Shown one piece after another: positions 6,473 through 63,165 of a stretch of DNA of 64,000 nucleotides. Every line of letters begins with the position of its first letter. Position 1 is the first letter of the stretch. Origin of the DNA: Candidatus Caenarcanales bacterium (GTDB lineage Bacteria; Cyanobacteriota; Vampirovibrionia; Caenarcaniphilales; Caenarcanaceae); NCBI GenBank assembly GCA_041737745.1, contig JBGSRC010000008.1, forward strand, positions 44,459-108,458, written 5' to 3'. The position numbers were made by a program, and so were the translations under genes. The notes beneath the pieces are model-generated. The model had not been told where the DNA came from. It was given only the letters and a program-made list of their open reading frames with translations, and made no database searches.

Positions 6473-6475
6473 GGG

Positions 6476-6560
6476 CTAGCGCCCCCAAATCCCCTCTAAT
6501 GAAATCGAAAAGCCTAATCAAAGGGGGTTTGGGGGACGTCAGTCCCCCAAGATAAATAAC
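6476..6560. repeat. REP-like repeat ('CCCCCAAATCCCC...GGGGGTTTGGGGGACGTCAGTCCCCC')
   Basis: Inverted G/C tracts; member of the same dispersed family. Confidence 0.55.
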
Positions 6561-6625
6561 TTCCATAACCTCCAGTGCAAAAATCAAGAGCTAAGATCAA
6601 AGGATTAAGCTAAGCAAAAGAAAAA

Positions 6626-11162: not shown

Positions 11163-12380
11163 ATGGAAAGACCGAAAAATCCTCCTCGTGGTACAGCTGA
11201 TTTATTGCCGGCAGAAGCGGAATATTGGCGGCAACTAGAACAAAAAGCTACTGACTTTCTTCGTTGCGCGGGCTTTGGGGAGATTCGGACTCCGATCTTT
11301 GAGCAAACAGAAATCTTTACCCGAGCCACCGGCGAGAGCAGTGACATAGTCAGCAAAGAAATGTACACTTTCCTCGATCGCTCTGATCGCTCGCTCACCT
11401 TGCGGCCTGAAGGTACTGCTGCTGTCGCACGCGCTTATTTGACCAGTGGCCTCGATCGGGCTCCTAAGCCGGTTCGACTTTTCTATTTGGGGGCCATGTT
11501 TCGTTATGAGCGCTCTCAGAAGGGGCGCTTTCGCCAATTTCACCAGCTAGGGGTGGAAATGCTCGGTCTTGGTCGCCTGCAGAGCAGGAGCGGTCAAGAT
11601 TTTGAGGGCATTAAATTGGCTTGGGATTTGTTTGCGGCTCTGGGAGTGAAAGATCTGAGTTTGCAGCTAAATTGTTTAGGAGATAAAGCCTCAAAAGAAT
11701 CTTTTAGTATTGAGCTAAGAAGCTTTCTAGAAGCGCACCAAGCTGAGATCTGCCCAGACTGTCAGCGGCGTCTAGTGACTAATCCGATTCGGGCTCTCGA
11801 CTGCAAAGACCCTAAAGACAGCGCTCTTTATCGTGCCTCTGCCCCAAGGCCTTCGGCTTTTTTGGGTGGGGAAATGAAGAGCGATTTTCTGGATCTTTTA
11901 GCACTTCTCGGTAGAGCGCAGATCCCTTATGTAGTCGATGATTTTTTGGTGAGAGGGCTCGATTATTACACCGGAAATGTTTTTGAGATTAAAGCTTTAG
12001 AAAACGCCTCTCTTGCTACCCAAAACACGATCTGTGCCGGTGGGCGCTATGATGAGCTGCTAGAGCTCTTTGCGGGGCCTGCTACTCCGGCTTTCGGTTG
12101 GGCTTTGGGTCTGGAGCGTTTGCTTGAGCTTTTGGATTTACCTGTGCTCTTGGTTGGCGCTTTGCCTCGGGCTCATCTAGTCGATATGGGGGCTGATTTT
12201 GTGGCTTTAGAGCAGGTTCTTTGTTCGCTGAAGGCGGAAGGTTATGCTGTCACTGTCGACTACAATGTCTCTGAGAGCGTGAATCTGAGCAAGGTAAAAG
12301 ATGACTGTCTGAAGAGAGGAGTATCGCTTTTGTGTGTGTTGGGAGCTGAGTTGCAAAGATTTGAGCTTAGAGCTCGTTAA
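11163..12380 (+). CDS. hisS: Histidyl-tRNA synthetase-like class II aaRS (HisS, or the HisZ-type paralog)
   Basis: 'LRPEGTAAVARAY' (motif 1 region), 'FRYERSQKGRFRQFHQLGVE' (motif 2), 'GGRYDEL' and 'GWALGLERL' (motif 3). At 405 aa it is short, so the HisS versus HisZ call is not certain. Confidence 0.6.
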   Translation: MERPKNPPRGTADLLPAEAEYWRQLEQKATDFLRCAGFGEIRTPIFEQTEIFTRATGESSDIVSKEMYTFLDRSDRSLTLRPEGTAAVARAYLTSGLDRAPKPVRLFYLGAMFRYERSQKGRFRQFHQLGVEMLGLGRLQSRSGQDFEGIKLAWDLFAALGVKDLSLQLNCLGDKASKESFSIELRSFLEAHQAEICPDCQRRLVTNPIRALDCKDPKDSALYRASAPRPSAFLGGEMKSDFLDLLALLGRAQIPYVVDDFLVRGLDYYTGNVFEIKALENASLATQNTICAGGRYDELLELFAGPATPAFGWALGLERLLELLDLPVLLVGALPRAHLVDMGADFVALEQVLCSLKAEGYAVTVDYNVSESVNLSKVKDDCLKRGVSLLCVLGAELQRFELRAR

Positions 12381-13221: not shown

Positions 13222-13261
13222 GAAGTCTTGGTTTTGTTTTTACTGTAGGTTAGGGAAGTTT

Positions 13262-13300
13262 TTGATTATGAGGGGTCTTCGCCCCCTCAAACTCCCCCTT
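13262..13300. repeat. REP/MITE-like repeat end ('GAGGGGTCTTCGCCCCCTCAAACTCCCCC')
   Basis: Hairpin plus the family core CCCCCTCAAACTCCCC. Confidence 0.6.
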
Positions 13301-13462
13301 GAAGTTGAATGAAGAAAATTAACTCTACCAATTAATAAGGGGAGCTAGATGGGCTTCCTGTCTATCGCTAGCTGGTCGTTAGTCTATTGCTAAGCAAACC
13401 CGCAAAATAAAAAAGGAGGACACAAATCCTCCTCCCTGAAAAAAATATTTTGCTCAAACTTC

Positions 13463-24381: not shown

Positions 24382-26295
24382 TTGCCTTGTAGGCTATATT
24401 TTATAAACGTAAAATTATCAGAAATGAACAGTCACCAATCAAGCCAAGAAATAGACAGAATAGTAATTCGCTTCGCCGGTGACTCAGGCGACGGAATGCA
24501 GCTCACCGGTGGCCAATTCACCAATACCTCAGCCATAGCCGGAAACAGTCTTGCCACTCTCCCCGACTTTCCCGCCGAAATCAGAGCCCCGCAAGGGACG
24601 ATCGCTGGCGTCTCCGGTTTTCAGATCCAGTTTGGGGAAGTGTCTATCCGCACCCCCGGAGACGAACCAGATGTTTTAGTGGCCATGAATCCAGCCGCCC
24701 TCAAAGCTAATCTCTCCACGATCAGAGGTGGCGCCACGATCATCGTCAATGAAGACGCCTTCACCGACAATGGCTTGGCTAAAGCTGGCTATACCTCAAA
24801 CCCACTCACCGATAATTCCCTAGAAGGCTTCAAGCTAGTCAGCATCCCGATCACAAAGCTCACCCGCAATGCCCTTGAAGAGCTTGACTTAGACGGCCGC
24901 AACAAAGACCGCTGCAAAAACTTCTTTGCTTTGGGCCTGATGTACTGGATGTACTCACGTTCGATGGACGCCACGATCAAATGGATCGAGGAAAAATTCG
25001 GGAAAAAACCAATACTGGCTGAAGCAAACCTTAAAGCACTCAAAGCTGGCTTCAATTGCGGCACGGCGATCGAGGCTCTTCCTAGTTTTGTAATTCGTTC
25101 AGCTCCTATTCAGCCCGGTACCTACCGGAATATGACCGGTAACCAAGCGATCAGCATAGGCTTGATTGCTGCTTCGATCAAATCCAAGAAAAAAATTGTC
25201 CTCTCCGCTTATCCGATCACGCCAGCCAGTGAGATTCTGCACGATCTGTCTAAATACAAACAGTTTGATGTGATTACTTTTCAAGCCGAAGACGAAATCG
25301 CTGCTGTCTGCGCTGCTATCGGTGCTTCATATGGTGGATCGCTGGGTGTTACTTCTACTTCAGGTCCTGGCCTAGACCTCAAAGCCGAAGCTTTAGGCTT
25401 AGCGGTGAAAACAGAGTTGCCCTTGGTGGTGATAAATGTCCAAAGAGCAGGTCCCTCCACCGGCTTGCCGACCAAGACCGAACAATCTGACCTGATGCTC
25501 GCTATGTACGGGCGTCACGGCGAGTCTCCGGTTTGCGTGATTGCGCCAGCTAGTCCCTCAGACTGCTACGAGATGGCATACAGAGCCTGCAAAATTGCAC
25601 TCGAGTTCATGACACCGGTGATCTTGCTCACAGACGGCTATATCGCGAACGGTTCTGAGCCTTGGCTCATTCCTAGTCCCGATGATTTGCCTGAGATCGG
25701 AGACTGTCTGATCGATCCAGAAGCAAACCAAGATCAGCCTTTCTTGCCCTATAAGCGTGATGAGCGGGGAGTTCGTCCTTGGGCAATACCGGGTATGAAG
25801 GGTTTTGAGCACAGAATCAGCGGCCTAGAAGGCCAAGTGGACACAGGCAATATCAGCTATGACGCTGAGAACCATGGCCTAATGACGGCTGCAAGAGCGG
25901 CAAAGATCGAGAATATTAAACACACTATTCCGCCTCAAGAAGTCTTCGGTCCAAAGCAGGGAGATTTATTGGTGCTGGGCTGGGGTGGAACTGAAGGTTC
26001 TTTGCGGGCGGCTGTTGAAGAATCACAAAAAGAAGGCTTGTCTGTTGCTCACGCGCAGGTTCGTTACCTGAATCCTTTCCCCGTCAACCTTGAAGAAGTC
26101 TTGAAAAGCTACAAAAAAGTCTTGATTCCTGAGATCAACTGTGGGCAGCTGATTCAGTTGATACGGGCAAAATATCTGGTAGACGCTCAGGCTTTCAATC
26201 TGGTCCGTGGACAGCCTTTCAAGGTGCGAGAACTGAAAGAGGCCATTCGGGCTAATCTATCTGAGCTGAGCTCAGCATCTAATACCGCTAAGTAA
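24382..26295 (+). CDS. korA: 2-oxoglutarate:ferredoxin (2-oxoacid:acceptor) oxidoreductase alpha subunit
   Basis: N-terminal 'IRFAGDSGDGMQLTGGQFT' characteristic of the KorA/OorA family; 637 aa. No korB is present downstream. Confidence 0.8.
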   Translation: MPCRLYFINVKLSEMNSHQSSQEIDRIVIRFAGDSGDGMQLTGGQFTNTSAIAGNSLATLPDFPAEIRAPQGTIAGVSGFQIQFGEVSIRTPGDEPDVLVAMNPAALKANLSTIRGGATIIVNEDAFTDNGLAKAGYTSNPLTDNSLEGFKLVSIPITKLTRNALEELDLDGRNKDRCKNFFALGLMYWMYSRSMDATIKWIEEKFGKKPILAEANLKALKAGFNCGTAIEALPSFVIRSAPIQPGTYRNMTGNQAISIGLIAASIKSKKKIVLSAYPITPASEILHDLSKYKQFDVITFQAEDEIAAVCAAIGASYGGSLGVTSTSGPGLDLKAEALGLAVKTELPLVVINVQRAGPSTGLPTKTEQSDLMLAMYGRHGESPVCVIAPASPSDCYEMAYRACKIALEFMTPVILLTDGYIANGSEPWLIPSPDDLPEIGDCLIDPEANQDQPFLPYKRDERGVRPWAIPGMKGFEHRISGLEGQVDTGNISYDAENHGLMTAARAAKIENIKHTIPPQEVFGPKQGDLLVLGWGGTEGSLRAAVEESQKEGLSVAHAQVRYLNPFPVNLEEVLKSYKKVLIPEINCGQLIQLIRAKYLVDAQAFNLVRGQPFKVRELKEAIRANLSELSSASNTAK

Positions 26296-26400
26296 TCCAC
26301 AAATTAAGGGGGAATGGGGCACAGCCCCATGAAAAAAAAGGATCTTCCCCTCCCTCAGGGAGGGGATAGAGGGGTGGGTGTACGAATCAATTAAGCCCAT
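26296..26400. repeat. REP-like repeat cluster ('ATGGGGCACAGCCCCAT', 'CCCCTCCCTCAGGGAGGGG') directly after korA
   Basis: The palindrome CCCCTCCCTCAGGGAGGGG recurs at ~62125 and, as variants, at 39140 and 57750. Confidence 0.55.
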
Positions 26401-26433: not shown

Positions 26434-28824
26434 TTAAACCGAGTTTCGGCTAGCATTGACACTGGCAGCCAGCGATTTCAAGACTAGCTTTTCGAGAGTA
26501 TCACGCCGCTCAGGACTAAGATTAGCCCCGTTCACTCTAAGCTCCTGAAGGGCGTAATGCTGAATGACCAAGAGCGGTAAGACTATGTTTTCCCGCATAG
26601 CAATCGATTTAGCCCCAACGGGATTTGAGGCCATCAGGCTCTCTTCACCGGAGATTTCACGGAGCAGCTTTTCACTAAGCTCGGCTTCGCTCGCTAGAAG
26701 ATGCCAGAAGGACGCAAAGACCGGATCGACACTCAGATAAGCTGTGAGACCGAAATTAGCCTTCAATAAACTCTGCATGGCATTGCCGATCAGTGCCCGA
26801 AAGAAGCGACACTCAGCATACATGCTCTTTAGTTCAGACCAAAGACCTGCTTCTTTGAGCTCAGCAAGAGCACTTCCAAGACCATAGAAGCCCGGTATAT
26901 TTTGTTTCATCTGCGTCCAAGCCCCCACAAAGGGAATAGCCCGCAAATCGGAAAAGGCAAGTTCTTTGTCTGTGCCTCTCTTGTTCGGTCTACTCGCTAT
27001 GGTCAGCTTGTTATAGAAGCGAAGTGGCGTGACCAGCTCTAAATAACTCAAAAAGAGCGGGTGATCCTTGAGGGCTAGATAAGAGCTGAGGGCTTTTTGG
27101 GAGAGCAAATCCAAAATCTCTGTCTCTCGATGGCTTAAATCTTTCCCCTGACTGCGAGCCTCAAGGCCTGCCGTGTAAAGTTGTTCAAGGTTGTAGCTAG
27201 CTGAGCTGGGTGAGCCGTAAGTGGAAGAGATAGTCTGTCCTTGGATCGTCAGGTGAATTTCTTTGAGCGAGATCGATTTGCCGAGAGAGCTATAAAAAAG
27301 ATGCGTATTGCCACCACCGCGCGAAGGTGGGCCACCGCGTCCATCGAAGAAAATCAGCGTGATCCCATGGGCTTTGGCTTGCTCGCTTAGCCTTGTTTTT
27401 GCCTTATAGATCGCCCAATTGGCAGTGATATAGCCCCCGTCTTTTGTGCCATCCGAAAAGCCGACCATGATCGTCTGCTCTTGAAGACGTTCAGCTAGAT
27501 GTTTTTTGTAATGGGGGTCTAAATAGAGCGTCTGCATCACTTCTGTGCTCCGCTCTAGGTCGGTGATAGTCTCAAAGAGCGGTACAAAGTCTAATTTGAT
27601 TGACTGCTCTGGCGACAAGCTCTGAGCCAGCTGAAAGACACCTAAAATATCGTTGGCATTTCGTGTATTGCTAACAATGAAACGCTGCAGGGCGGCTATG
27701 CCGTTTTCGGCTTGAATTTGACTGACAGCTTGGAGACAGTCACGGAGGTCTGCGCTGAGCGGCGAGATAGTCTGGGAATTATCTTTGAGCTCCAAGATCG
27801 CTTCTTCGATCACTCGACTATCTTGCCTAAGGTCTAAGCTCGCAAAATGAAAGCCAAAAGTCCTAATAGCCGCGAGCAAATCATCGAGCTCAGCCAGAAA
27901 GAGGCCGCCATGTTCGGTGATCAGAAGCAGTCTGGTCGCGGCTAGATCGCTTTCCAGTTCTTGGGCAGATAGGTAGGAGTTTGAGTTCAGTCTTACTTGG
28001 ATGGAATGGAGCTTTTCATGGACACCGGCGAAAGTGAGCAGGCGCATCAGTTTCTCGAGGCTTTGTTGGTAACAGCTCAGGATGCTTCTTTTCAGTAGAC
28101 TGGCTACCGCTAAGGTGGTCTCGGCTGTCACATAGGGGTTCCCGTCACGGTCTCCACCGGGCCAGAAGCCTATTTCGAAGGAAGGACTGGTCTTGTTCTT
28201 TAGGTTTTTCAGTTCGCTCTCTAGGCTCGGTAGTACTGGATAAAAGACATTTTCCAGATACCAGATATAGCTCTGGGCTTCGTCTAGGGGGGTCGGTTTG
28301 CGGGTATTGCGGAAGCGTGTTTTTCCGAGTTGGAGTAGTATTTGTCTGATTCGGCCGAGATCATTTTTTTTGACGGCCTCTACTAGACTGCGGGTAATGA
28401 AGAGAATAGTATCGGGGTAAAACTGGGTTGGGTGAGCTGTGAGCACTACGCGGACTTTGTAGTCTTCTAGGGGTTGATTGGGGAGTTTTTCCCAGTCGAA
28501 GCCTGCCAGTGTCCCTAGACCATTTAGATCGTTTAGTTCATTGAAGCTGGCGTCTTCGAGCGCATCGAAGAGGACTACTTGTCTTTCGACGAACTGCATG
28601 ATTTGGAAGAGGGCTTCAGCTGATTTGAGGGGGAAGAAGGACTCGACTATTTCTTTCGGGTATTTGCCTTTTTTCAGTTCTTCTTGGCAACGCAGGGTGA
28701 ATAAAGATAATTGGGCTCCTGTATTGGAGACATCGCTGAAGGGGAGGGTGAGGAAGAGCGCGTTATAGACTTGGTATTTTAGTTCTACTTCGCTGGCGAA
28801 GGTTTCTGAGCGTTTTTCTTTCAT
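26434..28824 (-). CDS. ppc: Phosphoenolpyruvate carboxylase
   Basis: 'VLTAHPTQ', 'GFSDGTKDGGY', 'FFDGRGGPPSRGGG' and C-terminal region motifs; 796 aa. Confidence 0.85.
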   Translation of the reverse strand: MKEKRSETFASEVELKYQVYNALFLTLPFSDVSNTGAQLSLFTLRCQEELKKGKYPKEIVESFFPLKSAEALFQIMQFVERQVVLFDALEDASFNELNDLNGLGTLAGFDWEKLPNQPLEDYKVRVVLTAHPTQFYPDTILFITRSLVEAVKKNDLGRIRQILLQLGKTRFRNTRKPTPLDEAQSYIWYLENVFYPVLPSLESELKNLKNKTSPSFEIGFWPGGDRDGNPYVTAETTLAVASLLKRSILSCYQQSLEKLMRLLTFAGVHEKLHSIQVRLNSNSYLSAQELESDLAATRLLLITEHGGLFLAELDDLLAAIRTFGFHFASLDLRQDSRVIEEAILELKDNSQTISPLSADLRDCLQAVSQIQAENGIAALQRFIVSNTRNANDILGVFQLAQSLSPEQSIKLDFVPLFETITDLERSTEVMQTLYLDPHYKKHLAERLQEQTIMVGFSDGTKDGGYITANWAIYKAKTRLSEQAKAHGITLIFFDGRGGPPSRGGGNTHLFYSSLGKSISLKEIHLTIQGQTISSTYGSPSSASYNLEQLYTAGLEARSQGKDLSHRETEILDLLSQKALSSYLALKDHPLFLSYLELVTPLRFYNKLTIASRPNKRGTDKELAFSDLRAIPFVGAWTQMKQNIPGFYGLGSALAELKEAGLWSELKSMYAECRFFRALIGNAMQSLLKANFGLTAYLSVDPVFASFWHLLASEAELSEKLLREISGEESLMASNPVGAKSIAMRENIVLPLLVIQHYALQELRVNGANLSPERRDTLEKLVLKSLAASVNASRNSV

Positions 28825-28869
28825 TGAGCTTCATTCTAGCTTTTGTAATCTTGAAACTTACTTGAGGTT

Positions 28870-28915
28870 AGGGAAATATATTCCATGGGACTTGCGTCCC
28901 CAAACCCCTCTCGGC
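28870..28915. repeat. REP-like hairpin 'GGGACTTGCGTCCCCAAACCCCTC'
   Basis: Same unit as 38962..38983 (GGGGACGAAGTCCCCAAACCCCTG) and 62150..62175 (GGGGACTTCTTCCCCAAACCCCTA). Confidence 0.6.
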
Positions 28916-30098: not shown

Positions 30099-31652
30099 CT
30101 AGCCCAGTCCGTATTCTTTCCAACGATCTTCCACTTTCTTCTTGAGCTCTGGAGACATATTTAGCTCTGCCGGCCAATCCCGGGTGAAGCCTTCAGTGGA
30201 CCATTTGACCGTTGCATCTAAGCCCATCTTCCCTCCAAGTCCCGCTCTGGTACTAGCATGATCGAGTATGTCGACTGGGCCTTCTGAGAGTACTGTGTCT
30301 CTGAGCGGGTCAGTATTGGCAAAGACCCTCCAAGCTACTTCGCTTAGATCGTGGATATTGACATCATGATCGAGCACTAGGACGTATTTGGTGAGGCTCA
30401 TTTGGCCTGAACCCCAGATCGAATTGATTATTTTTCGGGCATGACCGGGATAGCGTTTCTGAATTTTTATAATTGCACAGCTATGAAAGACGCCTTCCAG
30501 TGGCAGATTCAGGTCGAGGATCTCAGGCATGATGAACTGAAGCATAGGCAAAAAGATTCTTTCAGTCGCCTTCCCCAGATAACAATCTTCTTGAGGTGGT
30601 TTGCCGACGATTGTCGCTTGATAAATAGCCTTACGTTTGCGGGTGAGAGCGGTGAGCCGGAAGACCGGAAAATCACCAGCCAAAGAATAGAAGCCAGTAT
30701 GATCACCAAAAGGCCCCTCCCAACGCAGCTCATCTAGATCGACATAGCCCTCTAAAATAATCTCGGCGTCAGCTGGTACTTCCAGCTCGATGGTCTTGCA
30801 TTTGACCATGTCTACTGGTTTTTTTCGCAAGAAGCCAGCGAAGATCATCTCGTCTATCCCGGAAGGCAAGGGTGCTGTAGCCGCGTAAGTGATGCTGGGG
30901 TCAGCGCCGATGGCGACAGCTACTGGGATTTTGCGAAGACCACCGAATTTGGCGCCTAGCTTGAGGCCATGGGCTTCTGCTTCGCGTCTATCGAGTGCGC
31001 TTTCATTGGGGTTGGCTTGCAGATCCCGCGCTTTCTTGAAATGTTCAGCTGCGTCATGGTGCCAATGGACGTGAAAGCCGGTTTCAGTATTTGAATATTT
31101 TTGCATCCGATACATGCCGACGTTTCTAGTGCCCGTTGTGGGGTCTTTGGTGAAGACGAGGGGCAGGGTGATGAAAGGGCCACCATCGGCTGGCCAGCAT
31201 TTGAGGATGGGGAGCTGGTCTAGGAGCTTGTCTCCGTTAGCGGCTAGAAAGACTTCTTCTTGGCAGGGGGCTGAGAAGTTTTGGTGCACTCTGGGGGCGA
31301 AATTGGCGGCTTCGGCTAATTTGGGGAGGAGCGAGAGCTTGCCTAGGAGGCCTTGGGGGATGTTTTTGGCTAGGCCCAGATACTCGGCTATTCTTGCGCC
31401 TATTTCGTCTAGGTTATCGACATCGAAAGCGATGTTTAGACGTTGGTAGGAGCCTAGGGCATTGATCAGCAGGGGCATTTCATAGCCGATGACGTTCTCG
31501 AATAGAAGAGCTTTGTTTTTTGTGCCTTTTTCTTTGCTCACTCTGTCGGTGATCTCGGTGATTTCCAGTTCGGCCGTTACTGGTGCTGTGATCCGAATTA
31601 GTTCATTGGCTGCTTCTAGTTGGGAGACAAAAGTCTGAAGATCTCTGTTCAT
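30099..31652 (-). CDS. UbiD-family (prFMN-dependent) decarboxylase, quinone biosynthesis (ubiquinone or futalosine-pathway menaquinone)
   Basis: 517 aa, collinear with 3-octaprenyl-4-hydroxybenzoate carboxy-lyase family (e.g. 'PLVFTKDPTTGTRNVGMYRMQ', 'HHDAAEHF', 'GADP', 'GYFLRKKPVDMVKCKTIELEVPADAEIILEG'). Confidence 0.85.
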   Translation of the reverse strand: MNRDLQTFVSQLEAANELIRITAPVTAELEITEITDRVSKEKGTKNKALLFENVIGYEMPLLINALGSYQRLNIAFDVDNLDEIGARIAEYLGLAKNIPQGLLGKLSLLPKLAEAANFAPRVHQNFSAPCQEEVFLAANGDKLLDQLPILKCWPADGGPFITLPLVFTKDPTTGTRNVGMYRMQKYSNTETGFHVHWHHDAAEHFKKARDLQANPNESALDRREAEAHGLKLGAKFGGLRKIPVAVAIGADPSITYAATAPLPSGIDEMIFAGFLRKKPVDMVKCKTIELEVPADAEIILEGYVDLDELRWEGPFGDHTGFYSLAGDFPVFRLTALTRKRKAIYQATIVGKPPQEDCYLGKATERIFLPMLQFIMPEILDLNLPLEGVFHSCAIIKIQKRYPGHARKIINSIWGSGQMSLTKYVLVLDHDVNIHDLSEVAWRVFANTDPLRDTVLSEGPVDILDHASTRAGLGGKMGLDATVKWSTEGFTRDWPAELNMSPELKKKVEDRWKEYGLG

Positions 31653-37386: not shown

Positions 37387-38256
37387 GTGAATAACAATAA
37401 ACCTACAAAGCCCATGCGTGAAAAAATGAGTGAAAGAAACTCCGGAAATACTGACTTCCCTCACTTCTGGGATACAAACAAAAATCAAACAGATCCCTAT
37501 ACAGAAGAAAGATTGACCGAAGAAGGCGTCAAGCTAAAAAGAAAATCTGTTCGCCTTCCCCAAATCTCCACAGAAGACTTCAACCCAGAAAGAAATATAA
37601 AGCCAATTGAAAACGAAAAAGACTTGCTCTTTACAGCCAATAAAAGACGTGAAGACGAATACAGAGAAGTACAACGCTTCCTACAGACTAAAACTTCTAA
37701 TTTTTCGAATGATATAAAGCCAGTAATAGCCGAAAATAACTATATATTGCCAGAGCCAGAACTTCATGTTCCTGTCTTGCCTTCCGATCTATTGGCTGTT
37801 GCTGAGCCACCGCTCAAAGTAGAACCCGAGCCCTCTGATTTTCCTTTGCACTTGGTGAGCTGGCTAGGTTTGGCGCTTGTTTTGTCGCTTGGCACTTTAA
37901 ATTTGCTCTATATGCTTGAGATCAAAGAGACAGAACAGCTCTTGCTCAAACGCCTTGACGCTCTAAGTACTCAAATAGCTCGTGGAGAGAACACCCAAAC
38001 TGAAACTCCCCCCAGCTTTTTAGAAGAAGATCCCAGTAGCTATGAAGAAGTTGTTGTTTCCTCTGAAACACCGCAAGCCCAACCAGAAAAGACAGTAAAC
38101 CCAATTGAAAAGCCTTTAGCTTTAGCTGGTAAAGCTTGGAAGAAAGCCCAGCAACTGATCACACCACAAACTAAGCCAAAAGAGAAGATCTATTCGCCTC
38201 TACTCCCTTCCGAAGAGAGTCCAGAAGAGGAAAACCCTTGGTCTTCCAGTCAATAA
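37387..38256 (+). CDS. Hypothetical single-pass membrane protein, Pro/Glu-rich
   Basis: One TM helix 'LVSWLGLALVLSLGTLNLLYML'; remainder charged low complexity; 289 aa. Confidence 0.4.
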   Translation: MNNNKPTKPMREKMSERNSGNTDFPHFWDTNKNQTDPYTEERLTEEGVKLKRKSVRLPQISTEDFNPERNIKPIENEKDLLFTANKRREDEYREVQRFLQTKTSNFSNDIKPVIAENNYILPEPELHVPVLPSDLLAVAEPPLKVEPEPSDFPLHLVSWLGLALVLSLGTLNLLYMLEIKETEQLLLKRLDALSTQIARGENTQTETPPSFLEEDPSSYEEVVVSSETPQAQPEKTVNPIEKPLALAGKAWKKAQQLITPQTKPKEKIYSPLLPSEESPEEENPWSSSQ

Positions 38257-38257
38257 A

Positions 38258-39772
38258 CTAATCCCAAGTTTCTCGGTAAACACCAGCCGGATCATAAATG
38301 TTCGCTTGGCGCTCAGGATTGAACACTCGGTCACGGGGATCGTTGCCTGTGCCGGCTAGATAAGCCCAATTCCCCCAATTGCTATAAACGTCATAATCGA
38401 CCAGAACACTCTCGAAATACTCGGCTCCTAGGCGCCAGTCCAAACAAAGCACTTTTGCGAGATAACTGGCGACGTTTTGCCTTGCTCTGTTGCTGGTGTA
38501 GCCAGTGCTGGCCAGTTCTTTCATTCCAGCGTCAATGAGTCTTTCGCCGGTTTTGCCTTGCTTCCAATGCTCAAAAGCGTTTTTGTCTTGGCGAAAGAAA
38601 GAAGCTTTGCCTGAGACCCCTGCCTTAGAGAAGAAAGCTTTGCCGTGCAACATGAACTGCCAGCGAAAAAAGTCGCGCCACAAGAGCTCAAAATACAACC
38701 AATAAGTTGACTCGTTTGCTCCTCGCTCGGCTTCATAGCTTTTCAGTTCTGCATAAATCTCCCGAGCTGAGATACAGCCTAGAGCGAGATAAACAGAAAA
38801 CTTGGAAGAGTTATCTTGGCCTAAGAGATTATTTCGGGTTTCTTTGTAGGTAGCTATGCAGTCTGTATCCCAGAGATAATGCTTCAGTCTTTTTAGGCCT
38901 GCTTCTCTTCCCCCTTGCAGGCCTAGGATCAAACTTCTATTTTCACTGTAGGTTTGGGGATTGTTTTCTATGGGGACGAAGTCCCCAAACCCCTGATTAT
39001 CTTTGAGGGATTGGGGTACTGCCAAAGCTCCTTGCAACCCTGCAATTATGCTTTGAGGGTATTCGTCGAGTAACTGTTCATGAACTTCCTGTCTTGGTAG
39101 GGTTTGGGGCGAAGCCCCATCAGGAAAAATCTCCCCATCCCTTAGGGAGGGGGTAGGGGGTGGGAAGGGATCAGTGCAAGAGCCTAAAAAAAGTGAGTTG
39201 CACTCTCCTGTCCAGTCTGGAAGAGGCGGAAGCAGGTCAGGTGCCCTCACAGGACTAGTGACAGTCCCCAAGCTCTCTAGTCTCTTTCGGAAAGAGGTAA
39301 ACTGCGGGCCAACGCTCTCTAGGGGAAACCCTAGATCATTTTTTTTATAGAGTGAGCCTGTCTCAAATTCCCTGACTTCTATCCCTAGGTGACGAATCTC
39401 GGCTAAGTCGGCTTCCTCTTCTGGCGCTGGCTCAGCGCTGACATGCACCAGTATTTGCTCAGGAGTAAGGCCAGAAAGCTCCATTAGTTGACTGAAGACA
39501 CTAGCTGCAGAGCCCTGCCGGATAAAGAGGCTAGAGCCTAGCTCAGTGAGAGCTTCTGACAAAGAATCCAAGCATTCTTGTAGGTGCTTACTTCGTCTCA
39601 GGGATAGACGAGGAAGTCTGCTAAGACGAGCCGGAGCCAGTTGGGTTGGGGTGAATAGATAGAGCGGTAAAAAACTCTGACAGCTCTCAGTCAGCTCAAG
39701 CAGCCCGGCATTATCGGCTAGGCGTAGGTCGTTTCGGAACCAAAAAATACCTAATTCTTTTTTTGCCTGCAC
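38258..39772 (-). CDS. Cryptochrome/photolyase family protein (CRY-DASH-like); interdomain linker contains repeat-derived sequence
   Basis: N-terminal photolyase alpha/beta domain ('GIFWFRNDLRLADN') and C-terminal FAD-binding domain ('WRDFF', 'TGYTSNRARQNVASYL', 'NWGNWAYLAG'). 504 aa. Confidence 0.85.
   Translation of the reverse strand: MQAKKELGIFWFRNDLRLADNAGLLELTESCQSFLPLYLFTPTQLAPARLSRLPRLSLRRSKHLQECLDSLSEALTELGSSLFIRQGSAASVFSQLMELSGLTPEQILVHVSAEPAPEEEADLAEIRHLGIEVREFETGSLYKKNDLGFPLESVGPQFTSFRKRLESLGTVTSPVRAPDLLPPLPDWTGECNSLFLGSCTDPFPPPTPSLRDGEIFPDGASPQTLPRQEVHEQLLDEYPQSIIAGLQGALAVPQSLKDNQGFGDFVPIENNPQTYSENRSLILGLQGGREAGLKRLKHYLWDTDCIATYKETRNNLLGQDNSSKFSVYLALGCISAREIYAELKSYEAERGANESTYWLYFELLWRDFFRWQFMLHGKAFFSKAGVSGKASFFRQDKNAFEHWKQGKTGERLIDAGMKELASTGYTSNRARQNVASYLAKVLCLDWRLGAEYFESVLVDYDVYSNWGNWAYLAGTGNDPRDRVFNPERQANIYDPAGVYRETWD
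38950..39170. repeat. Two REP-like units embedded in-frame in the photolyase/cryptochrome interdomain linker
   Basis: 'GGGGACGAAGTCCCCAAACCCCTG' (38962..38983) and 'GGGTTTGGGGCGAAGCCCCAT...CCCCATCCCTTAGGGAGGGGGTAGGGGGTGGG' (39101..39164) lie inside CDS 38258..39772. Confidence 0.6.
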
Positions 39773-39864: not shown

Positions 39865-41163
39865 GTGCAAGCAATAGGACGAACATCGAAGATTGGCTTT
39901 TTGCGTTTGCTCGGCCAGCTCTTTAGCAGTCCGCAGATCTCTCGCCTAAAGGCCTTTTCGACTGTTGCGCCGATAGCTCTCGGTATACCGGCTGCTCTTT
40001 GCATGCCTCTCACTAATCTGGCTAAAAATCCTGAAGCAGTGGTGAAGCCCAGTGACGAAAATAGACAGGCTTGGTTGGGGGCAATCTATCCACTGTGTTT
40101 TTTTGGGACCATGCTGAACAATGTCCTGTTGGCTCTCTTAGACGCCTCACCAACCAAGCTCCTCAGTTATCTTCCTTTCTTGCCCTTGGCTTTCAAACAT
40201 GCCTCCAATGAATTCAAGTTGATGGGGATTGCTAGGAAAATTCGGGCAGCGGAAAGAGAGCTTCAAGCTTGTCAGGATCAGAGTAGTCACACTCTCTTAG
40301 AACGAGACTTGGCGGGGCTTTATGCCGACGGGAAAAAAATCGACGCTCAGCTTAGCTTCTTTGGGCGAATTCTTTTTACATTGCTTTTGATTCCTACTTT
40401 TGTGGCTACAATGGCGAGGCTCTCTGGGCGAGCGTCTTTTGCTGGGAAAAATTGTCTTACCGAGTCAGTAAGAGGAAGCAATGTCGCCGAGCATCTGACT
40501 GGCTACGGAAAACTCTTTATGGTAAATCTGGAAAAAGAAATGCTTTGCTTGCGGGAATCAGCTCGTCAGTTCTTGAATCCGGCTAAATGGGGACAGTTGC
40601 ACAAACAACATCAATCGATGGTTCGAGCGGAGATCTCGTCTGGAGGACTGAAGGGGATAGGGGCTTTTGTGGCTAGCCTCGGTGGGGGAATGATTCCGAT
40701 CGGTACAAATTTCTTCAATATGATTTTGCGTTTGCTGGGAGGTGCTAGTAGTTATTTGGCGTATCGTCGTTTTGGTGATAGTTACCTAAACCGAAATACT
40801 CCATATGACGATGAGGCGAGCAAAGCGAAGCGGGCAGAGGCGCCAGCTGGCGATCAGCTTCTCGATAAGCTTTCTAACACCACAGTGTCTTTGAGTCGGC
40901 TTTTGTCCGGTTGTTCTAATGTCAGTGCTGGACTGAATCCGACTTTTGCGACGAATTATGGTTCTTTGGCTGTGGGGGGGAATTTGTTTGGTGGGGGCTT
41001 ATATTGTTTATCTTTTTTGCCGACGATTTTAGGTTTGACTGGTTTGGAGAATACCTTGCAGATTTCCGCTTCTAGTCTTATTTTTGCGGCCAATGGGGCT
41101 CAGAATTTGCATAAGGATTTGGAAAGTGAGTTTGTTGCTAGGAGGTCTTTAGGAAAGCTTTGA
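39865..41163 (+). CDS. Hypothetical hydrophobic protein
   Basis: 432 aa with several hydrophobic segments and Gly-rich C-terminal part; starts at a non-ATG codon in the ORF track. Confidence 0.4.
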   Translation: MQAIGRTSKIGFLRLLGQLFSSPQISRLKAFSTVAPIALGIPAALCMPLTNLAKNPEAVVKPSDENRQAWLGAIYPLCFFGTMLNNVLLALLDASPTKLLSYLPFLPLAFKHASNEFKLMGIARKIRAAERELQACQDQSSHTLLERDLAGLYADGKKIDAQLSFFGRILFTLLLIPTFVATMARLSGRASFAGKNCLTESVRGSNVAEHLTGYGKLFMVNLEKEMLCLRESARQFLNPAKWGQLHKQHQSMVRAEISSGGLKGIGAFVASLGGGMIPIGTNFFNMILRLLGGASSYLAYRRFGDSYLNRNTPYDDEASKAKRAEAPAGDQLLDKLSNTTVSLSRLLSGCSNVSAGLNPTFATNYGSLAVGGNLFGGGLYCLSFLPTILGLTGLENTLQISASSLIFAANGAQNLHKDLESEFVARRSLGKL

Positions 41164-45531: not shown

Positions 45532-45815
45532 AGGTTTTAGACTCATCCCCCCAGCCCCTTAAACCCCTCAGAGCAAGGACATTACTGAGACGGGCTTGGG
45601 TTGGACATGGCGTGGTAGGCAGTTAAGGAAAGACTGAATAACTCAATCAAGGGGGAGTTTGAGGGGGCCTTAGGTCCCCTCATAACAAATACTTCAAGTA
45701 ACCTCAAGTGACTCCAAACATTCCCTTAAGAACCAAACCAGAGTGAGACGGGCTCAAGTTGGACATGGCGAGGTAGACAATTGAGGTTCTAGAGGTTTTT
45801 ACTCATCCCCCAGCC
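45481..45815 (+). repeat. Three copies of the GT2 gene 3'-terminal segment (45481..45560 including the stop, 45583..45625, 45741..45815) interleaved with a REP/MITE unit (45645..45695)
   Basis: 'ACTGAGACGGGCTTGGGTTGGACATGGCGAGGCAGGCAGTTGAGGTT(G/C)TAGAGGTTTT(T)ACTCATCCCCC' is repeated with ~85-90% identity. Confidence 0.7.
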
Positions 45816-52488: not shown

Positions 52489-52620
52489 AAGGGGAGTTTG
52501 AGGGGCAAAGCCCCTTTTGCGAAAGTTTTTTACCACAATCGATCTTAGGGTTTTGAGCTCACTTAAGGTTACTTGAAATATTTACCATGAGGGGACCTAC
52601 GGCCCCCTCAAACTCCCCCT
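52489..52620. mobile_element. Complete ~130-bp MITE-like element with terminal inverted repeats GGGGAGTTTGAGGGG / CCCCTCAAACTCCCC
   Basis: Left end 'AAGGGGAGTTTGAGGGGCAAAGCCCC' and right end 'GAGGGGACCTACGGCCCCCTCAAACTCCCCCT'. The internal segment 'CACTTAAGGTT..ATGAGGGG' is shared with the copies at ~56960 and ~57570. Confidence 0.6.
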
Positions 52621-61956: not shown

Positions 61957-62100
61957 AGTCCCCAAACCCCTATTCAATTTGAGCGACTTAACAATATATA
62001 GCGTGGCTTTTTAGAGCTGTTCAGCGTTTCATGAAGAACAGGTGGAGTTTGAGGGCGCTAGCCCTCAAGGAAATAAACTTCACTAACCGCAAGTGAGCCC
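61957..62100. repeat. 143-bp direct repeat, copy 1 (starts right after the stop of 61270..61956)
   Basis: About 93% identical to 62162..62304; contains 'GTCCCCAAACCCC' and 'GGTGGAGTTTGAGGGCGCTAGCCCTCAAGG'. Confidence 0.75.
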
Positions 62101-62161
62101 TAAAATCCCACCCCCAGCCCCTCCCTCAGGGAGGGGAGAAACTTTTTACTATGGGGACTTC

Positions 62162-62304
62162 TTCCCCAAACCCCTATTCAATTTGAGCGACTTATCAATA
62201 TATAGCGTGGCTTTTTAGAGTTATTCAGCGATTCATGAAGAACAGGTGGAGTTTGAGGGCGCTAGCCCTTAAGGAAATAAACTTCACTAACCGACAGTGT
62301 AAGC
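62162..62304. repeat. 143-bp direct repeat, copy 2 (ends at the stop of the recombinase-like gene)
   Basis: See copy 1. The 61-bp spacer carries the palindrome CCCCTCCCTCAGGGAGGGG. Confidence 0.75.
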
Positions 62305-63165
62305 TCAGCCTTCTAAAACCTCAAAGACCTTCTCGTGAATTCTTCTCAATACCCCAAGATCAAACTTGCTTTTCTTAACCAGAGAGGCAAGTTTTTTCCT
62401 ACCGACCATCTCCCGCGCAAAGAACAATCCATCTTTCTCAATCAGTGAACGCTCAGCATAATCTTGCAGATCTACCGGTGAAAGATCTAAGCCAAAGATT
62501 TTTTTCGCAAGTCGCCTAACAGCCGTAGCCAAATAAACTGGCTCAGTCTTCTCTCCCTTCCCCTTGCAAAAGACGAACTCGGCACTTTTAGCCTGCTTTC
62601 TAGATTCTTCTATCAAATCCACCAAATTTGGATCAATTGGCAAAACGCGCATCCGACCCTTCCGCCCAAGCGTGATATGCGATTTCCGACCCAGACTGAG
62701 ATCTAACCAGCGCAATTGGGAGATCTCCTCAAGCGAGGCCCCAGTAAAAGCCAATAGCGCTAAAAGCAATCGCTGAGCCGGCTTGAGTGTTTCATTGTCT
62801 GCTAGCAAAAGCTCCAGATTGGCTGCTGAGAGGCTTTGCGCTTTGGGAGATTGTTTGGCTTCTTTTGCCTTAAAGCGCCAAGGTAAAGCTAGACGTTGAT
62901 CTATGCTCGCTAGCTTCTTTTCCCCCAGCCAGAGCAGAAAACATCTGATATTTGTAGCTCTTCGCTGCCCGATTCGACGACTGCAGTCGCCTACTAAATC
63001 TAGAATCTTTTCGCTATTTAGAATACTAAAATCGAGTTTGCCTGAGCTGGCCGTTGCTGCGAAGAGAAAGTTTAAGTCGAGTTGGTAGAGTTTGGCGCTG
63101 CTCTCTAGGAGGGCTTTGTCTAAAATAAAATCATCTATAAACCCTTGGAATTCGCTCTCAGTCAT
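62305..63165 (-). CDS. Tyrosine-recombinase (XerC/XerD/phage-integrase) homolog with all catalytic residues substituted (predicted inactive)
   Basis: Collinear with XerD: a SAM-like N-domain ('RRATNIRCFLLWL'), then 'LLALLAFTGASLEEISQLRWLDL' aligned to 'LEVLYATGLRVSELVGL' (Arg to Ala/Ser), 'GRKGRMRVLPIDPNLVDLI' aligned to 'GKGNKERLVPLGEEAVYWL', 'LSPVDLQDYAERSL' aligned to 'LSPHVLRHAFATHL', and 'MVGRKKLASLVKKSKFD' aligned to 'LLGHSDLSTTQIYTH' (Tyr to Phe). 286 aa. Confidence 0.5.
   Translation of the reverse strand: MTESEFQGFIDDFILDKALLESSAKLYQLDLNFLFAATASSGKLDFSILNSEKILDLVGDCSRRIGQRRATNIRCFLLWLGEKKLASIDQRLALPWRFKAKEAKQSPKAQSLSAANLELLLADNETLKPAQRLLLALLAFTGASLEEISQLRWLDLSLGRKSHITLGRKGRMRVLPIDPNLVDLIEESRKQAKSAEFVFCKGKGEKTEPVYLATAVRRLAKKIFGLDLSPVDLQDYAERSLIEKDGLFFAREMVGRKKLASLVKKSKFDLGVLRRIHEKVFEVLEG

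Follow-up and report, generated by a model that had tools for sequence, protein, structure and literature searches.

A cluster of dispersed hairpin repeats lies in frame inside a cryptochrome/photolyase-family gene of Candidatus Caenarcanales bacterium, in a 64,000-nucleotide (nt) stretch of contig JBGSRC010000008.1 whose whole length is referred to below as the window. The insertion measures 216 nt, is made at both ends of a repeat that otherwise occurs between genes, and separates the α/β domain of the encoded CRY-DASH protein from its helical FAD-binding domain. The reading frame runs unbroken through it, and the nearest relative of the protein does not carry it. Probably, a dimer or cluster of the repeat entered a surface linker of CRY-DASH that tolerates it, and is carried there as a passenger in a two-domain gene.

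The insertion and its host gene

Judged from its sequence, the product of the host gene belongs to CRY-DASH, which both the order of its domains and its closest structural class fit. A phmmer search of the Protein Data Bank (PDB) was led by CRY-DASH entries (E 1e-96 to 1e-86), of which 6kii, 1np7 and 2j4d span 1e-96 to 1e-88, with class I photolyases trailing at ~1e-35, and the named database matches of the 504-amino-acid (aa) protein are to 'DASH family cryptochrome'. In the PDB alignment, residues 4–203 pair with 6kii 4–204 and residues 279–503 with 6kii 207–431. A Pfam PF03441 match is also present at residues 361–503 (E 2.2e-40). The protein stops at the equivalent of residue 431 in solved CRY-DASH chains of 489–490 aa; a C-terminal truncation was considered and ruled out, because many homologues of 409–450 aa share this end point, indicating a normal short-tailed form.

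An initial annotation, made from the sequence alone, had described about 70 residues lying between the two domains at positions ~195–275 as additional to those of orthologs. Alignment confirmed this and sharpened the boundaries to residues 204–275 (nt 38948–39163). Between E166 and G287, both invariant, the query has 120 aa as compared to 47–51 aa in 29 of 29 homologues drawn from many phyla. A relative with the same linker was also looked for, and the nearest one, P0078 (409 aa, encoded at locus L120 on a related metagenomic contig), lacks the insert, having 14 aa where the query has 100. The FAD domain of P0078 is 60% identical to that of the query and its N-terminal domain 33%, the lineage-specific sequence DYDVYSNWGNWAYLAG is common to both proteins, and RecN is found near CRY-DASH in both loci in the same divergent arrangement. 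No orthologue closer than P0078 was present among 5.8 billion clustered proteins. By its housekeeping proteins, the window falls among the Melainabacteria, and the best named matches of its ThrRS are from Candidatus Caenarcaniphilales, at 64–68% identity. The reading frame is preserved across the insert, as had been annotated: only the gene-phase frame of the 216 nt is open, and the other five contain two to four stops each. A broader statement, that the linker is the one region of photolyases able to tolerate such an insertion, did not find support, as this segment is nearly constant in length across the 29 homologues and the part that varies in length among CRY-DASH homologues is the C-terminal tail.

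The repeat from which the insert ends are made is a unit of ~55–70 nt, composed of a variable 5′ module, (T/C)ATG(A), a GC-rich hairpin (GGGGnC-loop-GnCCCC) with a stem of 5–6 bp and a loop of 3 nt, and the tail (TC)AAAC(T)CCCC. A second type of unit adds an upstream hairpin, CCCCTCCCTnAGGGAGGGG, followed by a T run. An nhmmer profile for which seven intergenic copies alone served as the training set, to the exclusion of any copy from a gene, identified 15 significant copies in the window (E < 1e-3). Thirteen of these are intergenic; the remaining two, which alone lie in coding sequence, belong to the CRY-DASH gene. Since 14.6% of the window is non-coding, the binomial probability of finding at most two copies in coding sequence is ~1e-9.

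The repeat strings first noticed in the gene are present at 38972–38993 (GGGGACGAAGTCCCCAAACCCC), 39100–39118 (GGGTTTGGGGCGAAGCCCC) and 39139–39164 (CCCTTAGGGAGGGGGTAGGGGGTGGG). As full strings, all three are unique in the window in both exact and 3-mismatch searches, so that exact searching cannot show them to be repeats and a profile and blastn were needed. With 38930–39185 as the query and the window as the target, blastn aligned 39100–39164 with intergenic 26310–26378 (78%, E 2e-9), 39100–39165 with intergenic 62173–62106 (83%, E 2e-9), 38964–39010 with 62145–62190 (E 4e-5), and 38945–38994 with 28860–28909 (E 8e-4). The intergenic-only profile recovered 38943–38996 on the (+) strand (E 1.5e-5, model positions 4–62) and 39148–39102 on the (−) strand (E 4.9e-5). 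The intergenic-type identity proposed for the ends of the insert is thus borne out by alignment to intergenic copies and by the profile search.

The internal layout of both units follows that of the family. In unit 1, the 5′ module ACTGTAGGTTTGGGGATTGTTTTCT precedes ATG, the hairpin GGGGAC-GAA-GTCCCC (38972–38986) and the tail AAACCCC (38987–38993). Unit 2, of the two-hairpin type, consists of hairpin A, CTCCCTAAGGGATGGGGAG (39149–39131), a T run, ATG, hairpin B, GGGGC-TTC-GCCCC (39118–39106), and the tail AAACCC. The two units are convergent (tail to tail), and their outer ends fall within a few nt of the boundaries of the protein insertion. Between them, the probable third unit fragment listed in Table 1 aligns with an inverted partial unit that follows a full unit at 6577–6517/6473–6498, and an internal direct repeat joins 38939–38959 to 38996–39016. 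Over its full length, the insert aligns with the reverse complement of 62095–62305, the match being strong toward either end and weak in between, and its spacer resembles the spacers of other convergent pairs no better than shuffled sequences do. The initial annotation had reported two units in the gene. Two units are indeed present, but given their opposite orientation, the probable third fragment and the ~75 nt of unassigned sequence between them, the insert has the appearance of a single cluster or dimer of repeats, as opposed to two units inserted independently.

Table 1 Features of the CRY-DASH gene, its insertion and related repeat copies, in window positions
Feature	Position	Strand	Details
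CRY-DASH (cryptochrome/photolyase family) coding sequence (CDS)	38258..39772	(−)	504 codons, GTG start, no interruption
N-terminal α/β (DNA_photolyase) domain	39263..39748	(−)	residues 9–170; Pfam PF00875, E 4.6e-21
Helical FAD-binding domain	38264..38938	(−)	residues 279–503; aligned with 6kii 207–431
In-frame insertion	38948..39163	(−)	216 nt, 72 codons, residues 204–275; missing from 29 aligned homologues and the nearest relative
Repeat unit 1	38943..38996	(+), antisense to the CRY-DASH gene	repeat family D3; nhmmer, blastn
Repeat unit 2, two-hairpin type	39100..39165	(−), sense to the CRY-DASH gene	repeat families D8 and D15; blastn, nhmmer
Probable third, degenerate unit fragment, GAGGGATTGGGGTACTGCC	39005..39023	(−)	inverted tail and half hairpin; weak, not significant alone
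Insert middle, ~75 nt	39024..39099		palindromes TTGCAACCCTGCAA and GTTCATGAAC; no assigned origin
Terminator-like hairpin, then ATTTTT	39131..39149	(−), sense, inside CDS	pattern match only
Sigma-70-like promoter match, TTGGCA-18-GATAAT	38996..39025	(−), sense, in insert	10/12; pattern match only
Nearest intergenic two-hairpin copy	62106..62182	(+)	repeat family D1; within 204-nt tandem pair of convergent units, 61957–62299
Two-hairpin unit, intergenic	26310..26378	(−)	blastn
Single-hairpin unit, intergenic, CAAACTCCCC tail variant	13240..13304	(+)	19 nt past the stop of a co-directional gene
Single-hairpin unit, intergenic, CCCCAAACCCC tail variant	28856..28914	(+)	repeat search, blastn, nhmmer

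To view the insertion in the context of the folded protein, AlphaFold2 (AF2) was run on a 30-sequence alignment of the query and the 29 homologues. The resulting model has a mean predicted local distance difference test (pLDDT) score of 81 and a predicted template modelling (TM) score of 0.81. Values are mostly 89–96 in the N-terminal domain and mostly 86–98 in the FAD domain, and residues 191–278 form the single low-confidence segment (pLDDT < 50). A Foldseek search with the model placed 6kii, 2vtb and 1np7 on top, with TM scores of 0.75–0.79. As modelled, the 72-aa insert is probably a disordered excursion. Among 1.84e9 representative proteins, none is a true homologue of its peptide, the two weak matches being to unrelated tandem-repeat proteins. 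Other identities for the insert were rejected. An intein is ruled out by the small size of the segment and by the lack of a Cys/Ser start, a His-Asn end and intein motifs, and an intron or ribozyme by the lack of an Rfam match and by an RNA fold no more stable than that of shuffled controls (z −0.94). Applied to the insert, to the window as a whole and to ten further loci, Rfam matched two tRNAs only.

A passenger insertion and its alternatives

In the explanation we favor, a dispersed hairpin-repeat cluster of 216 nt, comprising two tail-to-tail units, the probable third fragment and the ~75-nt spacer, would have entered the CRY-DASH gene at the end of the linker that joins the α/β domain to the FAD-binding helical domain. 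Entry would have occurred by transposition or recombination of an element resembling a repetitive extragenic palindrome (REP), a REP doublet (REPIN) or a MITE (miniature inverted-repeat transposable element). The allele would persist because its length is a multiple of three, the in-phase frame is free of stops and a surface loop is the place of entry. A two-domain photolyase-fold protein, with a probably disordered excursion of ~72 aa, is therefore still encoded; full-length protein would be made, and the insert would be a neutral passenger with no gained function.

Several observations weigh against this explanation. The middle of the insert, 39024–39099, has no significant blastn match to any repeat copy in the window. 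The insertion shows no clean terminal inverted repeat, and neither a target-site duplication nor, among ten small ORFs of the window, a transposase was found. There is no close orthologue, the next best being ~40% identical overall, which precludes dating the insertion and measuring selection (dN/dS). The terminator-like hairpin and T run of unit 2 lie in the sense orientation and, by their pattern, could reduce the amount of full-length mRNA. The description of the repeat as exonised, given in the initial annotation, presupposes that the insert would be translated. The query also departs from the consensus at 11 of 103 near-invariant positions, as compared to 0–6 in the other 29 sequences, and most of these changes are not common to P0078, a distribution that fits relaxed constraint. 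The sequence TGATCC, which occurs on both sides, was tried as a target-site duplication and judged coincidental, as it would give a frame-breaking insert of 244 nt and consume conserved codons.

The departures from near-invariant positions are also what a gene on its way to becoming a pseudogene might display, with CRY-DASH disabled or down-tuned by the insertion, alone or together with relaxed selection, and the open frame only transient. Their number is the highest among the 30 aligned sequences, of which the query is the most divergent, and they include E115P, at an EE pair conserved in the N-terminal domain, together with M426T and G430A of the TGFMSNRGRQ motif. The sense terminator-like hairpin would fit such decay, as would the finding of the protein in one genome only. 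Yet the frame is intact over 504 codons even though five of the six frames of the insert hold stops, both domains fold with high confidence, and 92 of the 103 near-invariant columns are kept, including W365, W446, N465 and W469 of the FAD domain. Moreover, the whole genome is a long branch, its ThrRS and RecN being 69% and 33% identical to their nearest relatives, so that divergence alone is expected. Ongoing pseudogenization is therefore considered unlikely. Conserved residues such as those kept (W365, W446, N465 and W469) and lost (M426T, G430A and E115P) may include ones with FAD-pocket or electron-transfer roles.

A separate observation concerns the N-terminal, antenna-binding domain, which is far more diverged than the FAD domain (33% as compared to 60% identity to the nearest relative). 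Several residues invariant in the 29 homologues are lost in it (positions 41, 57, 63, 115, 148 and 155), among them one Glu of the conserved EE pair. This lineage may therefore have an altered folate antenna site, or none.

Much less probable than decay of the gene is an insert that has taken on a role, either by altering expression so that there are two transcription units or by adding an interaction or regulatory loop. The hairpin and T run at 39149–39131 and the 10/12 sigma-70-like site at 39025–38996 would suit the former, and the short helices that AF2 predicts inside the insert, at residues 230–237, 241–247 and 254–257, the latter. However, both signals are matches to consensus patterns only, no start codon or ribosome-binding site was identified for a separate C-terminal product, and the lack of any homologue of the insert peptide gives no sign of conservation or reuse. 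Finally, the suggestion that a long linker is ancestral and its likeness to the repeats coincidental, or that the insert is an assembly artefact, could draw on the middle 75 nt and on the lack of a close orthologue for comparison, but is already close to refuted by intergenic matches reaching E 2e-9, an independent profile that finds both units, unit edges that coincide with those of the protein insertion within a few nt, the lack of the segment in 29 homologues and the nearest relative, and an identical 504-aa protein recorded in both NCBI and Logan, which speaks against an artefact.

Comparison with known intragenic repeats

In-frame intragenic insertions of REPs, Rickettsia palindromic elements (RPEs) and MITEs have already been described, and what is new in the present case is the lineage and the host gene. 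REPs lying wholly within open reading frames (ORFs) were reported in several species by Di Nocera et al. 2013 (PMC3733652); many of them form dimers or clusters, and DNA replication and repair genes (uvrA, uvrB, recB) are notable among their hosts. Flexible linkers or loops were suggested to tolerate them, and the two REP superfamilies described are defined by a GTAG or CGTC end tag (PMC3733652). RPEs and intragenic MITEs are reviewed in PMC10969869, and RPEs are also treated in PMC3733652.

The window repeats share much with REPs, which are short imperfect palindromes of 20–40 bp: they are short GC-rich hairpins, present in many copies, mostly intergenic and downstream of co-directional genes, often arranged as inverted dimers or clusters, and occasionally found inside ORFs. 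Unlike REPs, they have ATG(A) as their head and AAAC(T)CCCC as their tail in place of a GTAG or CGTC tag, and are thus not members of those superfamilies. GTAG does occur ~25 nt upstream of the hairpin, but in no more than two copies (38947 and 13244), and shows no conservation. The insert also encodes 72 aa as compared to the 20–30 aa typical of intragenic REP dimers. REPs are accompanied by REP-associated tyrosine transposase (RAYT) genes, which are usually single-copy; no Y1_Tnp match was obtained in ten small or unassigned ORFs of the window. With no end tag, and no RAYT gene found in these ORFs, the label REP, under which these units were first annotated, holds as an analogy only.

RPEs, whose original report is said to be that of Ogata et al. 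in 2000, resemble the insert in being palindromic selfish repeats that lie in frame in protein genes and encode fold-compatible peptides, typically on the protein surface. They differ in measuring ~100–150 bp, in invading many genes per Rickettsia genome, as opposed to one gene in 64 kb here, and in having a conserved peptide per family. The sequence of the insert is unrelated to theirs, its peptide has no homologue, and its host is of the Melainabacteria type. Being unrelated in sequence and without a conserved peptide, the insert is not an RPE.

REPIN doublets were reportedly introduced by Bertels & Rainey in 2011. Like these and like MITEs (ERIC, BOX and Anabaena MITEb/e; PMC10969869), the insert has inverted units that flank a spacer in an element of ~200 nt with multiple intergenic copies, and elements of this kind can create translational fusions. 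It appears to differ from MITEs in that neither a clear terminal inverted repeat (19 nt at 74% for the best arms of the mutually inverted units) nor a target-site duplication was found, and it is unlike both MITEs and REPINs in that the ~106-nt spacer between its units is not conserved with that of other pairs.

The case provides a clean, well-delimited example of a selfish hairpin repeat inside a working-looking gene, in the non-photosynthetic Melainabacteria, where such repeats were previously undescribed. It agrees with the earlier REP findings, in which intragenic copies often lie in DNA-repair genes and in flexible linkers, and it can serve as a natural test of the additional loop length that a photolyase interdomain linker can bear. 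The CRY-DASH case alone changes no concept; its wider value lies in a hairpin core that is conserved across distant bacteria and plasmids.

The hairpin core in the window and in other genomes

The core of the repeat, consisting of the ATG(A), the GGGGnC hairpin and the (TC)AAAC(T)CCCC tail, is found in the window at 13267–13299, 52588–52620 and 45647–45680 (reverse complement), and recurs, identical in its bases, in a large number of unrelated bacteria. When metagenomes were scanned with ATGAGGGGN{5,9}CCCCCTCAAACTCCCCC (25 fixed bases), the yield was at least 120 loci with GC contents of 0.38–0.72. Matches listed in a genome scan with ATGGGGN7CCCCAAACCCC include Rhodobacterales, Myxococcota, Clostridia, cyanobacteria, Actinomycetota and others, and the GC content of the loci listed over both scans spans 0.34–0.74. 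The pattern leaves two positions of the stem unspecified; among the 126 instances within the listed matches, these are paired in 122 and 112, respectively, through several pair types, which indicates that the hairpin is kept by compensatory change. In the Rhodobacterales-like loci among the listed matches, the motif lies 7–57 nt after the stop of a co-directional gene.

A second setting for the motif is provided by the human gut. In at least about 58 gut-metagenome loci, it lies ~45 nt upstream of a MobV-type relaxase gene (HxDExxPHxH), on high-GC contigs of ~2.9 kb where GC hairpins precede the motif, iteron-like triplets follow it and a Rep-like gene is nearby (for example L187, L200, L129, L164, L188, L222 and L242). 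Several of these contigs carry the motif at each of their ends, as would be expected if the replicon were circular or if the repeat had interrupted the assembly. From its position, the gut-plasmid motif may be an oriT- or origin-associated site. A hairpin with a fixed single-strand tail is the usual shape of an HUH nuclease substrate, and a role of the core as the substrate of an HUH nuclease or relaxase is put forward as an idea only. Going further, the repeat could represent a cross-phylum hairpin superfamily not yet described, in the form of an ATG(A) head, a 6–9 bp GGGGnC/GnCCCC stem and an invariant single-strand (TC)AAAC(T)CCCC tail, with dispersed intergenic copies in Melainabacteria, Rhodobacterales, Myxococcota, Clostridia, cyanobacteria and others, serving as the shared site of a horizontally spreading HUH/relaxase-type enzyme, with the CRY-DASH insert as a rare coding landing; we regard this proposal as conceivable but rather doubtful. 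The core has no Rfam family, and a literature search for the motif string matched no paper.

Within the window, intergenic convergent pairs are found at 6473–6577, 61958–62097 and 62121–62299. The last two belong to the region 61957–62299, where a 204-nt unit occurs twice in tandem between two convergent genes, with a 137-nt core that is 95% identical. This tandem pair, itself built of convergent units, is the best full-length counterpart of the CRY-DASH insert. Many copies sit just downstream of co-directional genes. Units of the two-hairpin type begin with CCCCTCCCTnAGGGAGGGG and a T run, a terminator-like module seen at 39149–39125 (−) in the CRY-DASH gene and, with the same hairpin followed by a T run, in the intergenic counterparts at 62118–62150 (+) and 26347–26320 (−, reverse complement). 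The repeat family may double as transcription terminators or RNA 3′-end hairpins. In L120, from the low-GC (38%) relative, the spacer at 11330–11570 downstream of the insert-free CRY-DASH gene contains GC-rich hairpins, CCCCCACTCGGGGG, and a GCCCCAAACCCCC motif. The family-A profile matches nothing in that locus, but the spacer may still hold a related repeat.

No other repeat-invaded gene was found in the window, where the weak nhmmer matches in coding sequence are noise (E > 7). The sole other intragenic cluster of G4/C4 runs, at 31266–31355 in a UbiD-family gene, was examined as a candidate and proved to be ordinary coding sequence. Several housekeeping proteins exceed their NCBIfam models in length or are covered by them only in part: 30099–31652 (−), 24382–26295 (+) and 26434–28824 (−). 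The UbiD-family decarboxylase has ~42 extra aa relative to its model, in a segment without repeat character, the 2-oxoacid oxidoreductase alpha subunit exceeds its model by ~36 aa, and the score of the PEP carboxylase is 430 bits where the cut-off is 815. The CRY-DASH gene itself is flanked by ORFs at 37387–38256 (+) (289 aa) and 39865–41163 (+) (432 aa), neither of which matches a Pfam or NCBIfam model. The end of the 289-aa ORF falls one base short of the stop codon of the convergent CRY-DASH gene, leaving essentially no intergenic DNA between the two.

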